A stretch of 48,252 nt of DNA, the filler included, from Stramenopiles sp. TOSAG23-2 (lineage: Eukaryota): NCBI GenBank assembly GCA_900128395.1. It is 2 parts of 2 records of this genome, joined end to end, with 100 filler letters (N's around TTAATTAATTAA, not from the genome) between each part and the next. Parts side by side here need not be neighbours in the genome. Positions count along the whole stretch, not along the records: positions 1 to 24,102 come from LT649470.1; 1 more part is not named here. The stretch is one strand, 5' to 3'. Shown piece after piece: positions 11,700 through 24,202 of the stretch. The first letter of the stretch is position 1; every line of letters starts with the position of its first letter. Under the pieces are notes generated by a model. It was given only the letters and a program-made list of their open reading frames with translations, was not told the origin of the DNA and did no database searches. The translations under genes were made by a program, and so were the position numbers.

Positions 11700-11993
11700 A
11701 TGGCGTCTGGTAAGCGTCAAGATAGACCATCGATAATAAAAGAATGCGTTAATGAATCATTGATGGAAGGAGTGATGACTGCCATGAAAGCAGGAGCAAT
11801 TGCTTCATCAGTCGTATTGTTAGCGCACCATTTTCATAAAGGATTCAGAACAAATGTAGGAGTTAGTGGTAAAGTAGCGACGGTTATGATGCCTTTATTT
11901 GGAAGTTTTATCTTAACGACTGAACATTCTGTAAGTGCATGTAGGCGGAGACAGCAAGAGTTTGAACGATCTATGAGAAAATTGAAGGGATGA
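11700..11993 (+). CDS. Small two-helix membrane protein, ENOD93/Rcf2-N-terminal-like (putative mitochondrial)
   Basis: ATG at 11700 (MASGKRQ). The pattern EGVMTAMKAG...LAHHFHKGFRTNVGVSGKVA...F..TTEHSV resembles ENOD93/HIG1-associated proteins (recognised by eye only). Confidence 0.55.
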   Translation: MASGKRQDRPSIIKECVNESLMEGVMTAMKAGAIASSVVLLAHHFHKGFRTNVGVSGKVATVMMPLFGSFILTTEHSVSACRRRQQEFERSMRKLKG

Positions 11994-12094: not shown

Positions 12095-14887
12095 TTACGA
12101 TAATAAAGATACACTATCAAAAAATGAAATTTGATTTGATTCTGATGATAAAGATTTATGTGTTATCGTAGACGATTCAATAACGTTAAACTGATTCAAA
12201 AACATATTATATCTTGCTACCATCGAGCTACTTGTTACAAAAGTATTTTCATTGGCAATTAATAAATAATTGCCATCATTAATATTATTAGTACCATCAT
12301 TAAATAAAATTTCATCATACATACAAGAAATAAAAATAAATCTTTTCTCAAGTCCTTTTACATTAACAACCGATTTATTATCAGGAATCCAAATATATTT
12401 ACTACCAAAACAGTCATCGGCATCGCCTTTTTCCCTACCTTTCGTATGATTTGTACCACTGCTGCTGCTGCTACTGCTACTACTACTGCTATTATTTTTA
12501 TTAATACCACTCATGAAAGATGGAATTATTATATCAATTGGTACCATCGATAAGTTAGTGATAGAAATATAACCAATCTTGCCACAGCATAACATTTCCA
12601 ATTTAGTAGTATCATTTAATATCCTCGAGTAAATTCGAGGTTGTTCCACGTTTGCATTAAATATATTACCTTGATGGGAAGTAATTCCACATTGTATTGT
12701 TTTAAATAACATATCACGAAATTTATTTTGAAAGGAACGTGAATCTCCTTCGGATAATATAATTTGTCTAGCAGATATTGGATTTGCACTTAATATTTTC
12801 CAGATGTAATCAATTTGTACACTACGATTATATCGTAAAAAATATATACGATATGTAGCATTGGTATCATCTAAAATTAATTCCACATGATCTTGATTTG
12901 TAATAGATGTATTGCTTTTGACGACAAGAACTTCTTCCTGTGTGTTTTTCGATCCATTACCATTACTAGGAACATGTTTTGTAATAACTATTGTTACATC
13001 ATTTTTAGAATTGTAAGAATAATCTTTTCTACCACGTGTATTTGGTAAAAACAAACATATTTGAGTCCATGTAACTTGATGAACCCTCATTTCAACAACA
13101 TTCGAATCAATAAAATTCATTCCTCTAGTATTATGCATATTTTGGATTTTAGAAGATTTAAAGGTTACGTTATACCAATTTTTATGTGCTTTAACAACAT
13201 CAACATTTGTAAAACGCCTCATAAAATCAGTATATGTAATCCAGAATGTGCCATCATTCTTATCAGTCATCTTCAAAATTTTTTTTAATGAATTTGTCCA
13301 CACGTCAGAACCGGATGAAAATGCCCCATGCCATTCTTTCTTCCCCCATGGATTCCTTATACGAAGTACTCTTAATGTACCTTCTAATGATAAATGGACA
13401 TTTTGACTGTCTTTTAATTTTTGTTTATCATAACAATTCCCATTACTATGAAATTGATTAGTAACACTTGCACTTGTATTTCCAGCAGCAGATGTTGAAC
13501 TTTTTTTCTTTGAAGAAGAAAAGAACTCTTTAATGGATTGTTGTCTACCAAGCTTCACATCTTTAATTTCTTTTACTTCCAATATAGAATATGCATGTAA
13601 ACCAACGATACCTTCACCAGTTGTTAACGTGCCGGCTCCCATTGGAAAATTACAGCTTGCATATGACAATAATTTACCCCATGCAATATCTGAATCAAAA
13701 TGTTCGTCATTTAAACTTAATACTTCAGTTGGACAACCAGTTAATACACTGAATGCTTCCACTATTTCGCCACCTGAAATTGCCATATAATTGCTACATG
13801 CTTTTGCATATGCTTTTTCCAAAAAAGCAAGCCATAATGAATTTCCTCTTCCAGGCTTTGCAAACGCTAAATTTGATTTTGGTAATTTACGATATGATGA
13901 TGATGACGATGTAGAAGAAGACGAGGATGACGTACTACTGTTATTTCCGTTTGCTTTTTTATCATTATTTACACGTATGGGTAAAAAATTATCAATTGAA
14001 ATTGCTTCCCATTCACCATGTAAGCATAAATTAATTACAAGTTTCCCATCTTTTGGTATGCACATATTACGTTTAATATTATTATTATCATTGTTGTTGT
14101 TATTATTATTATTATCGGAAAGATACGTAGTATTGTTTAAATGATATGAAAATATTTGTTGCATTAAATCAGATCGTTCAGCAACAACTGCTGCTGCTGA
14201 AATGAACCAACAATCCCCAATTTTACCTTGTAATATGTCATTTGGAGCAAATAGTTTTTCATTTAATAAATGAGTTTGTGCAAGTTTATATTCAGGTGAA
14301 GAAAAGCGTTTCCAAGAGAGATCTTTCGCTTGTTTCGTATGTGGTTCACCGTTACACCATTGAAAAAATTTACAACGAAATTTGGCTGGTTTATTACAAC
14401 AATAAAAATATTTACCTTTGTTTTGTGTTTCTTTACGAACACGCTTTGCAGTAGCATGTTTACCACAATAACATTTCGGAGCTTCATCGCTATTATTATT
14501 ACTTTTTTTTTTCATACCAGAGCGTCCATCAATACTTCGTGAATTAGCTTGAAAATTGATGTCTACAAATAATTGATTTTTTGTATTTTGTTTTTCTACA
14601 TTTATATTGTCCGAAAGTTTTCCTTTTATCATGGAAACAGACGATGATATGATCCAGTTGTTCGTAGTATTATGAATGATTGTATTTGAATTATTTTCAT
14701 GATCACTATTACGTTTCTTGACTATTTCAGTTGTTGACGTTATTAATTTTCTTTTTTTATTTACAATGTGATTATTATTATTGTTATTGTTGTTCGTTGG
14801 GCGATGATGACCATTATTTACATGGTTTTGATTGGCATCATTGTTATCATTGTGGTTTGGGCTAGTCAAATCAATAATTCCACTCAT
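12095..14887 (-). CDS. Calpain-family (CysPc) cysteine protease with N-terminal GRF zinc finger
   Basis: Intact triad QGKIGDCW, HAYS, RNPWG, plus LEKAYAK and DGTFW. zf-GRF CYCG...NKGKYFYCC...CKFFQW. Likely start MSGIIDLT at 14887 (the ORF extends to 14938). Confidence 0.92.
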   Translation of the reverse strand: MSGIIDLTSPNHNDNNDANQNHVNNGHHRPTNNNNNNNNHIVNKKRKLITSTTEIVKKRNSDHENNSNTIIHNTTNNWIISSSVSMIKGKLSDNINVEKQNTKNQLFVDINFQANSRSIDGRSGMKKKSNNNSDEAPKCYCGKHATAKRVRKETQNKGKYFYCCNKPAKFRCKFFQWCNGEPHTKQAKDLSWKRFSSPEYKLAQTHLLNEKLFAPNDILQGKIGDCWFISAAAVVAERSDLMQQIFSYHLNNTTYLSDNNNNNNNNDNNNIKRNMCIPKDGKLVINLCLHGEWEAISIDNFLPIRVNNDKKANGNNSSTSSSSSSTSSSSSYRKLPKSNLAFAKPGRGNSLWLAFLEKAYAKACSNYMAISGGEIVEAFSVLTGCPTEVLSLNDEHFDSDIAWGKLLSYASCNFPMGAGTLTTGEGIVGLHAYSILEVKEIKDVKLGRQQSIKEFFSSSKKKSSTSAAGNTSASVTNQFHSNGNCYDKQKLKDSQNVHLSLEGTLRVLRIRNPWGKKEWHGAFSSGSDVWTNSLKKILKMTDKNDGTFWITYTDFMRRFTNVDVVKAHKNWYNVTFKSSKIQNMHNTRGMNFIDSNVVEMRVHQVTWTQICLFLPNTRGRKDYSYNSKNDVTIVITKHVPSNGNGSKNTQEEVLVVKSNTSITNQDHVELILDDTNATYRIYFLRYNRSVQIDYIWKILSANPISARQIILSEGDSRSFQNKFRDMLFKTIQCGITSHQGNIFNANVEQPRIYSRILNDTTKLEMLCCGKIGYISITNLSMVPIDIIIPSFMSGINKNNSSSSSSSSSSSGTNHTKGREKGDADDCFGSKYIWIPDNKSVVNVKGLEKRFIFISCMYDEILFNDGTNNINDGNYLLIANENTFVTSSSMVARYNMFLNQFNVIESSTITHKSLSSESNQISFFDSVSLLS

Positions 14888-24102: not shown

Positions 24103-24202
24103 NNNNNNNNNNNNNNNNNNNNNNNNNNNNNNNNNNNNNNNNNNNNTTAATTAATTAANNNNNNNNNNNNNNNNNNNNNNNNNNNNNNNNNNNNNNNNNN
24201 NN
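24103..24202. other. Artificial contig/scaffold linker
   Basis: 44 N + TTAATTAATTAA (stop codons in all six frames) + 44 N. Confidence 0.97.

Follow-up and report, generated by a model that had tools for sequence, protein, structure and literature searches.

Calpains that carry a zf-GRF finger together with the CysPc protease core (Zf_GRF-CysPc) are a published architecture, recorded in Ectocarpus, Emiliania (with an extra Zf_CCHH), Guillardia, Micromonas and Bigelowiella, and accompanied by UBA in chlorophytes (Zhao et al. 2012, PMC3563603; Rawlings 2015, PMC4631099). The group was recovered with BP 79% in the first of these studies. The available portions of both accounts present domain lists, without a PIP-box, an insertion into the core, a VIM/UIM paralogue or a function, and the open-access literature that we searched contained no PIP or repair role and no link to PCNA or DNA-protein crosslinks (DPCs) for these calpains. 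A 2026 review (PMC13413365, available in part) counts a Plasmodium calpain as a family member. We did not accept this assignment: "zinc" and "GRF" are absent from PMC2746569, as far as its available text goes, and the five GRF rows of Zhao supplement 2 do not include Plasmodium. Family membership being unsupported, the nucleolar location of the Plasmodium calpain was not used as evidence.

The closest functional parallels belong to other protease families. According to the available sections of a review of DPC and fork proteases (PMC7782752), SPRTN, Wss1 and GCNA combine a protease with DNA sensing and with PIP, SIM, ubiquitin-binding and p97-binding motifs, while FAM111A is a PIP-box protease that clears protein obstacles at forks; the review covers, among others, the metalloproteases SPRTN and Wss1 along with the serine protease FAM111A, and leaves calpains and cysteine proteases unmentioned. 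Among calpains, CAPN15 bears NZF fingers and cleaves ubiquitinated E-cadherin at the membrane (PMC12805371, available part). The homologous finger is found in NEIL3 and APE2, whose catalytic domain targets DNA, whereas that of the calpain described here targets protein.

A calpain with a zinc finger inside its protease core

The window analyzed, 48,252 nucleotides of the Stramenopiles sp. TOSAG23-2 assembly, encodes on its minus strand (14887..12095) a protein of 930 aa, P0001, in a single unbroken ORF (Table 1). There is no upstream in-frame Met, and the start agrees with those of the orthologues P0003 (MSEVIDLT) and P0004 (MSKVIDLT). Short near-identical pieces of the ORF were found in contigs of four of the four RNA runs (shares of 0.10 to 0.15), a weak indication of expression, as the comparison had no silent control; these runs gave no credible intron joint. 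The neighboring genes (CobW, SET, GH99, anoctamin, PPR, LRR, ankyrin and an Mtr4/Ski2-like helicase) have no apparent functional link to it.

Table 1. Features of the Zf_GRF-CysPc calpain gene, in window coordinates
Feature (residues)	Positions	Strand	Basis or remark
Zf_GRF-CysPc calpain gene (P0001), one ORF	12095..14887	-	930 aa; AF2 model
IIDLT, SIM-like (4-8), in disordered N-terminus	14864..14878	-	Sequence
KKRK, NLS-like basic cluster (44-47)	14747..14758	-	Sequence
First CysPc core element, F-x-D-x-x-F...S-x-D-G-R (107-122)	14522..14569	-	Upstream of finger
zf-GRF (137-179), within protease core	14351..14479	-	Pfam E 3e-9
Catalytic Cys226 (QGKIGDCW)	14210..14212	-	Cys in all parsed group-A and clade-B proteins
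Catalytic His431	13595..13597	-	Invariant in alignment A1
PIP-box QQSIKEFF (449-456), His+18	13520..13543	-	Conservation, shuffles, co-fold
Catalytic Asn512 (RNPW)	13352..13354	-	Invariant in A1; aligns with calpain-1
Calpain-type beta-sandwich (CBSW/domain III), about 566-712	12752..13192	-	VIA-align
C-terminal region (713-930)	12098..12751	-	Atlas lead from orthologue P0015

The original prediction had described a single calpain with an intact Cys-His-Asn triad and with the motifs IIDLT, KKRK, zf-GRF and QQSIKEFF, all of which were recovered when the coordinates were recomputed. P0001 belongs to peptidase family C2 (calpain-1 in PDB, E 4e-22; m-calpain in Foldseek, E 2e-22), and its only Pfam matches are Peptidase_C2 (E 6e-49) and zf-GRF; no SprT or WLM metalloprotease domain was detected. 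The AF2 monomer model has a mean pLDDT of 76 and a pTM of 0.80. Homologues comprise a paralogous clade B (recovered in 58/60 bootstrap replicates) and the remainder, group A, which includes P0001 and was rejected as a clade (monophyletic in 2/60), representing instead a grade; the split between family and outgroup was found in just 36/60. The catalytic Cys is kept in all 108 group-A and all 35 clade-B proteins with a parsable motif (11 and 2 proteins, respectively, were left out because the motif was not parsed). The Ca2+-binding core residues D217, E357, E518 and D545 are present in P0001. At EWxG+7, the position of D309, a Ca2+-binding core residue of calpain-1, P0001 has Ser525. Asp is not one of the top four residues here across group A, versus a share of 97% for clade B and 92% for the outgroup. 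No EF-hand (the penta-EF-hand domain of classical calpains) was matched in P0001 or in the 151 homologues scanned.

The core element that precedes the finger is matched in the alignment by the F-x-D-x-x-F start of calpains without a finger, and it lies upstream of the finger in 88/96 group-A and 20/21 clade-B proteins. As judged from this alignment, the finger interrupts CysPc within its N-terminal part and is not fused ahead of it, an arrangement that is new in this analysis; the earlier description of a zf-GRF/CysPc fusion already known in protists is thus right about the published architecture and wrong about the fusion. P0001 shares the two domains and the lineage with the published proteins (as far as described in their available accounts), and our chytrid members fall beyond the SAR/Hacrobia/Plantae range given there. 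None of the 12 outgroup calpains examined has a zf-GRF.

The finger (Cys139 to Trp177, 14357-14473) matches the NEIL3 GRF structures 7jl5 (E 1.6e-14) and 7omk (E 7.7e-13). The NEIL3 DNA contacts R518, V520 and W547 (PMC9561275, available part) correspond to K148, V150 and W177 in P0001 and are well kept across homologues (K/R 77%, V 91% and W 97%), while the equivalent of R521 is poorly kept (R 9%), so that three of four mapped contact positions are conserved. P0001 has Lys159 where 87% of the family has the GRF Arg, and Lys at this site disrupted short-ssDNA binding in NEIL3 GRF2 (same source). Binding of ssDNA by the P0001 finger would follow from homology, with Lys159 and the R521 position counting against it.

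When the C-terminal half was searched by fold, the CBSW was the sole part recognized and made up most of what the search covered (VIA-align against 1qxp_B, Z 10.3, rmsd 3.4, 124 aligned; against the calpain-7 C2-like 2qfe, Z 10.2, rmsd 3.2, 119 aligned). Residues 713-930 are probably similar to the SOL/calpain-D C-terminus, as read from an Ostreococcus-cluster orthologue, P0015, whose residues 510-823 gave an Atlas lead to the PF26741 CalpD_C cluster (score 0.94). The Pfam scan of P0001 itself matched neither a SOL-homology domain nor RanBP/NZF fingers, the latter being found in 2/151 homologues. The family resembles CAPN15/SOL in its CysPc, the lack of an EF-hand match and, among homologues, ubiquitin-binding N-terminal modules, with the C-terminal lead as a further probable likeness.

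A conserved PIP-box and its predicted partner

The P0001 motif fits the consensus Q-x-x-[ILM]-x-x-[FY]-[FY], its exposure being judged from secondary structure, pLDDT and co-fold only. Since 1.7% of shuffles of the P0001 sequence contain a canonical PIP, a single occurrence is modest evidence, and it is conservation across the family that raises it above chance. Of the 119 group-A homologues, 73 have a PIP in the loop between the catalytic His and Asn, against 0.33 expected from loop shuffles; in 68 of them it stands at His+18, and 44 loops have the canonical form (0.06 expected). A loop PIP was absent from all 37 clade-B and 12 outgroup proteins, and from the three other calpain loops of the TOSAG23-2 genome that parsed. 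Within the motif, Q (78%), F/Y (69%) and F (60%) stand out against variable flanks. Carriers have a median core identity of 47%, are spread over 27 of 49 clusters at 60% and include a diatom (Cylindrotheca), a red alga (Rhodosorus), a green alga (Chloropicon) and a chytrid (Irineochytrium). These patterns indicate that the loop PIP-box is selected rather than a product of chance, in line with the conservation on which the original prediction had made its claim depend. In a few lineages the register moves with indels (His+17 to +21), and 46/119 loops miss even the relaxed pattern, the Ostreococcus cluster (QTKLPEVL), Amorphochlora and Cladosiphon among them. The motif does lie between His and Asn, but not in the low-complexity part to which it had been assigned: it sits at the loop start, in fixed register directly after strand 432-442, where AF2 places a helix at 452-457 (block pLDDT 74), and the disordered low-complexity stretch (466-485, pLDDT <50) comes after it.

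The PCNA co-fold suggested in the original prediction used a stand-in eukaryotic PCNA from a metagenome locus, because no host PCNA turned up when the genome was searched by family and by pattern, the one PCNA recovered being located on a giant-virus-like contig. The pair scored 0.64 versus 0.00 for the best control, with at least 58% of contacts agreeing between runs and a partner pLDDT of at least 69. In the model, P0001 residues 446-459 occupy the PIP pocket (PCNA 40-47, 124-129, 233-234 and 250-256). The mark used is reached by 51/78 solved and 2/108 mismatched pairs (39/65 and 2/126 among eukaryotes), and P0001 may have passed because the predictor had already learned PIP-PCNA complexes of solved structure. 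The docking is thus a modelled one, and conservation and co-fold together make the predicted PCNA targeting well supported.

Recruitment motifs in the family and the paralogous clade

The N-terminal IIDLT, which we take to fit the SIM consensus, has SIM-like counterparts in P0003, P0004, P0005 and P0007. At the N-terminus, a narrow pattern occurs in 17/87 group-A proteins (2.85 expected) and a generic one in 43/87 (27.8 expected), so SIM conservation is only patchy, and SUMO targeting has less behind it than PCNA targeting. NLS-like clusters are found in 52/112 group-A proteins versus 14.8 expected (3/13 versus 1.8 in the outgroup). Ubiquitin-binding Pfam families were matched in 51 of the 151 homologues scanned, many below Pfam's cut-off, and not in P0001. 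Recruitment motifs for ubiquitin, SUMO, p97 and PCNA are thus present when the family is taken as a whole, and P0001 carries only the PIP and the SIM-like motif.

Clade B has a different set. A C-terminal PIP-like motif was found by regular expression in 9/31 proteins versus 1.33 expected, 8 of them in one alignment column, with a weaker result in a profile test (4/31 versus 3/82 in group A), and this clade likely relocated its PIP to the C-terminus. The UIM pattern occurs in 24/37 (0.3 expected) and a VIM pattern within the final 40 residues in 10/31 (0.27 expected; 0/82 in group A), while the SHP box is not enriched (1/119 in group A and 2/37 in clade B). The combination of PIP-like, UIM and p97-binding VIM-like motifs resembles the SPRTN/Wss1 toolkit. 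Together with the NLS-like clusters and ubiquitin-binding modules, these paralogue motifs lend good support to the nuclear genome-maintenance setting originally proposed.

Possible roles of the Zf_GRF calpains

We lean, by a little better than an even chance, toward P0001 being a cysteine protease that docks on PCNA, senses ssDNA and clears forks of protein obstacles. A nuclear calpain would use the PIP in its PC2 subdomain to dock on chromatin-loaded PCNA at the front face, sense ssDNA or fork junctions through the zf-GRF in PC1, be drawn by N-terminal motifs to SUMO- or ubiquitin-marked proteins, and cut obstructions to replication or repair such as DPCs, trapped topoisomerase or PARP and other tightly bound proteins. 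It would work like SPRTN, Wss1 or FAM111A with an unrelated cysteine-protease chemistry. Nuclear location, DNA binding, DNA-dependent activation and substrate class, including DPCs, are what we infer from the domains and motifs. P0001 is at most a functional analogue of SPRTN, Wss1 and GCNA, which are HExxH metalloproteases and not homologous to its papain-like Cys-His-Asn core; unlike them, it has PIP and finger within catalytic-core loops, and group A shows no VIM or SHP enrichment. FAM111A, in turn, belongs to the trypsin-like serine proteases and has no zf-GRF. The TOSAG23-2 genome encodes one strong SprT-like and two WLM (Wss1-like) proteases, which leave no gap to fill, and we rejected the idea that P0001 replaces a missing SPRTN/Wss1.

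The same motif set is common to fork regulators that spare crosslinks, which counts against the crosslink reading. A PCNA-docked regulatory calpain, whose cutting of fork, repair or cell-cycle proteins would be limited and site-specific and would not extend to degrading crosslinked proteins, is rather unlikely in our estimate, yet it fits the PIP, finger and ubiquitin/SUMO evidence equally well. Such limited cutting is typical of modulator proteases, ubiquitin-directed CAPN15 makes a defined cut in E-cadherin (PMC12805371, available part), the family C-terminus resembles CalpD_C, and SprT-like and WLM proteases coexist in the genome. Against it, the VIM-like tail and UIMs of the paralogue match the unfold-and-degrade logic of Wss1/SPRTN (as outlined in the available literature), an indirect argument because group A, P0001 included, lacks the tail.

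It is improbable that the Q-x-x-psi-x-x-F-F element is instead a structural helix on the protease or binds something other than PCNA, the protein being a general SOL-like calpain directed by ubiquitin, with a finger that may bind RNA, as it might in quality control of ribosomes or RNA. The fixed register, a conserved upstream Gly (78%), the helix of the monomer model, the degeneracy of the motif in several lineages and the presence of Smr in two homologues and zf-CCHC in three all agree with this. However, the triad of clade B is intact although the element is missing, and a similar motif occurs there at a different site, which is of low complexity; the invariant-type Gln and the enrichment of TD at positions 5-6 (30/93), a high-affinity PIP pattern (PMC8871960, available part), are PIP hallmarks, and the co-fold model engages exactly the PIP segment. 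We give very little credence to a PIP-degron that times destruction of the calpain by CRL4-Cdt2 in S phase without any recruitment role, since TD and the P0001 Lys at +4 would suit it but positions 5-6 are KE in P0001, a basic +4 occurs in just 17/93, near the rate of adjacent loop positions, and the finger and ubiquitin/p97 modules would be left unexplained.

Extending the PCNA-docked obstacle protease to the whole family is more tentative, and we hold it somewhat short of even: Zf_GRF calpains could be old, widespread cysteine-type DPC proteases convergent on SPRTN/Wss1, with one p97-linked paralogue, found in SAR, red and green algae and chytrid fungi and, by literature, in cryptophytes and haptophytes. 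As the putative ssDNA sensor and PCNA hook lie in the two active-site halves, assembly of the triad may rely in part on DNA and PCNA in place of Ca2+, and the position of both targeting elements in catalytic-core loops makes Ca2+-independent activation of a calpain by DNA/PCNA directly testable. If true, a PCNA-docked calpain would bring a new chemistry to the DPC and fork proteases, and a family that since 2012 has been known from domain lists alone would gain a function. Such an enzyme would also show how replication-blocking proteins are dealt with in algae and protists, with some algae, protists and chytrid fungi using a calpain against them.

A calpain with a GRF zinc finger inside its protease core

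The gene for P0001, the zf-GRF calpain of the window, is a single uninterrupted ORF encoding 930 aa, and the reads matching it derive from marine runs. Pfam detected Peptidase_C2 (E 6e-49) and a GRF zinc finger at residues 137 to 179 (E 3e-9) and no further family, and the catalytic triad (Cys226, His431 and Asn512) matched that of calpains of known structure in the alignment. Calpains were also the best Foldseek matches of an AlphaFold2 model (mean pLDDT 76, pTM 0.80). A fold search placed a calpain-type beta-sandwich (CBSW) domain in the C-terminal half, which may also hold a SOL-type tail according to a lead taken from an orthologue. When coordinates were recomputed, every motif named in the original prediction was found where it had been placed. 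The protein belongs to peptidase family C2; it is a member neither of the SPRTN/Wss1 proteases nor of the classical calpains.

A small gene convergent with that of the calpain (ca. 97 aa) had no Pfam match; of four RNA runs, three gave contigs that cover it. Contig C1264 covers only positions 1 to 24102, and the second half of the window therefore derives from another contig.

Features of the window and their positions
Feature	Position	Strand
P0001 calpain gene	14887..12095	minus
Small gene	11700-11993	plus
First N run	24103-24146	
Second N run	24159-24202	

Ordinary calpains begin their protease core with an F-x-D-x-x-F motif. Among proteins with parsed fingers, this motif precedes the finger in 88 of 96 from group A and 20 of 21 from clade B, and the conserved W-x-R follows the finger; as judged from this alignment, the zf-GRF is inserted inside the protease core. 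The fusion itself (Zf_GRF-CysPc), noted as a known architecture, is indeed described in passages of published work (PMC3563603, PMC4631099, PMC13413365). The DNA-contact residues R518, V520, R521 and W547 given for mouse NEIL3 in part of PMC9561275 map to K148, V150, R151 and W177, with family retention of K/R at 77%, V at 91% and W at 97%, and the R521 equivalent is not conserved across the family. P0001 carries Lys in place of the GRF Arg typical of the family, a substitution described there as disrupting short-ssDNA binding by NEIL3 GRF2. Elsewhere in this genome, a tandem zf-GRF pair appears at two places on contig C638, separated by 22,541 bases and scoring identically, which reflects either a duplication or an assembly repeat.

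Conservation of the loop PIP-box

The homologue set comprised 180 proteins besides the query, and 168 of the resulting 181 yielded a parsable loop between the catalytic His and Asn (13 were left out). In a tree of 154 core sequences aligned without the loop (60 bootstrap replicates on an 87-sequence subsample), the NPH-bearing clade B (37 members, 2 placed by loop sequence) was nested with 58/60 support. Group A (119 proteins, including P0001) is a grade rather than a clade, monophyletic in 2/60, and the family separated from the outgroup of 12 ordinary calpains in only 36/60. The chytrid fungi Irineochytrium and Rhizoclosmatium have zf-GRF calpains (P0069 and P0079, one record misnamed DEK1), so the family reaches opisthokonts.

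Since 1.7% of P0001 shuffles contain a canonical PIP by chance, the decision had to rest on conservation. Comparison of homologues upheld the predicted PIP-box: of the 119 group A proteins, 73 had the relaxed pattern in their loop against 0.33 expected from loop shuffles, 68 of them exactly 18 residues after the catalytic His, and the canonical pattern in 44 against 0.06, these carrier counts being of non-independent events. Carriers share a median core identity of only 47%, fall in 27 of 49 clusters at 60% and include Cylindrotheca closterium, Rhodosorus marinus, Chloropicon primus and the chytrid Irineochytrium annulatum. As evidence on the other side, the remaining 46 of 119 failed the relaxed pattern, among them degenerate forms of the motif in the Ostreococcus cluster, Amorphochlora and Cladosiphon. 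No loop PIP was found in clade B (0/37) or outgroup calpains (0/12), and the three other parsed calpain loops of this genome were short and lacked it. The profile reads G(78%)-x-Q(78%)-x-K-psi-T-D-F/Y-F, within variable flanks and loops of 27 to 161 residues. TD occupies positions 5 and 6 in 30 of 93, a high-affinity pattern according to a passage of PMC8871960. On these comparisons, the loop PIP-box of group A is maintained by selection.

Modeled contact with PCNA

Searches of the assembly recovered no host PCNA. The sole match (contig C2338, L001:1-3366) is flanked by genes for a kinase and for the minor capsid protein P8, and on that account the contig resembles a giant DNA virus, whether as contaminant, infection or insertion. 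The stand-in was therefore a full-length PCNA of eukaryotic type taken from a metagenome locus. Co-folded with P0001 residues 102 to 570, it scored 0.64 versus 0.00 for the best control, with at least 58% of contacts in agreement between runs and partner pLDDT of at least 69; solved pairs passed the mark in 51 of 78 cases and mismatched pairs in 2 of 108 (eukaryotes, 39/65 versus 2/126). Residues 446 to 459 lie on PCNA 40-47, 124-129, 233-234 and 250-256, the canonical PIP pocket. The proposed co-fold thus put the PIP segment in the interface, although with the stand-in and, because PIP-PCNA complexes are textbook structures, as a measure of likeness and accessibility within the whole core, not of binding. 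The Asp equivalent to calpain-1 D309, a core Ca2+ ligand, is lost in group A and retained in clade B and the outgroup. P0001 residues 526 to 531, adjacent to this position, contact PCNA in the model; one might speculate that PCNA or DNA assists activation.

Recruitment modules and the clade B paralogue

Ubiquitin-binding families matched 51 of 151 homologues scanned (UBA_4 in 32, UIM in 11, UBM in 4, CUE in only 2 and NZF in 2), many under the curated cut-off; P0001 had no such match. Smr appeared in two, zf-CCHC in three and EF-hands in none. The nuclease-type Smr domain ends two group A proteins, P0083 and P0101. Motifs were counted with consensuses assumed by us for SIM, NLS, PIP-like, UIM, VIM and VBM. 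The predicted SIM was supported in part: SIM-like motifs were enriched (17/87 in group A against 2.85 expected; 11/27 in clade B against 0.49), but their conservation was patchy, and the generic pattern reached 43/87 against 27.8. NLS-like clusters occurred in 52/112 against 14.8. PMC3563603 (supplement 2 and a table) lists an Emiliania member with an extra Zf_CCHH repair finger.

Clade B proteins (e.g., P0037, P0096 and P0128), where NPH replaces NPW, carry several UIMs, SIM-like motifs and a VIM or VBM-like terminal tail, and mimic Wss1/SPRTN more closely than the window gene does. UIM patterns were found in 24/37 against 0.3 expected, the terminal R-x5-AA-x2-R VIM pattern in 10/31 against 0.27 and a VBM-like one in 3/31 against 0.01; neither tail occurred in group A (0/82). 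A C-terminal PIP-like motif was present in 9/31 against 1.33, eight in one column, and was weaker in the profile test. None of this genome's calpain matches belonged to clade B.

Proposed role

The likeliest mechanism, by a modest preference, is that the calpain would be loaded on PCNA, engage ssDNA or a fork junction beside a SUMO- or ubiquitin-marked protein and then cut that obstacle, as passages of PMC7782752 describe for SPRTN, Wss1 and FAM111A; crosslinks may be among its substrates. Limited regulatory cuts at the fork are possible with distinctly lower probability. It is improbable that the motif is a structural or non-PCNA element of a general ubiquitin-directed calpain, as CAPN15 is described in part of PMC12805371, and a degron for self-destruction is the least credible reading. 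From these weights, some form of nuclear role connected with PCNA is highly probable. The original prediction knew of no description of such a role for calpains; searches of open-access papers gave no link of Zf_GRF calpains to PCNA or crosslink repair, and the loop PIP is genuine and conserved, and appears not to have been described before. This genome also encodes SprT-like and WLM (Wss1-like) proteases, with one strong ORF for the former (806 aa frame) and two for the latter, and the calpain would therefore supplement these enzymes rather than replace them.
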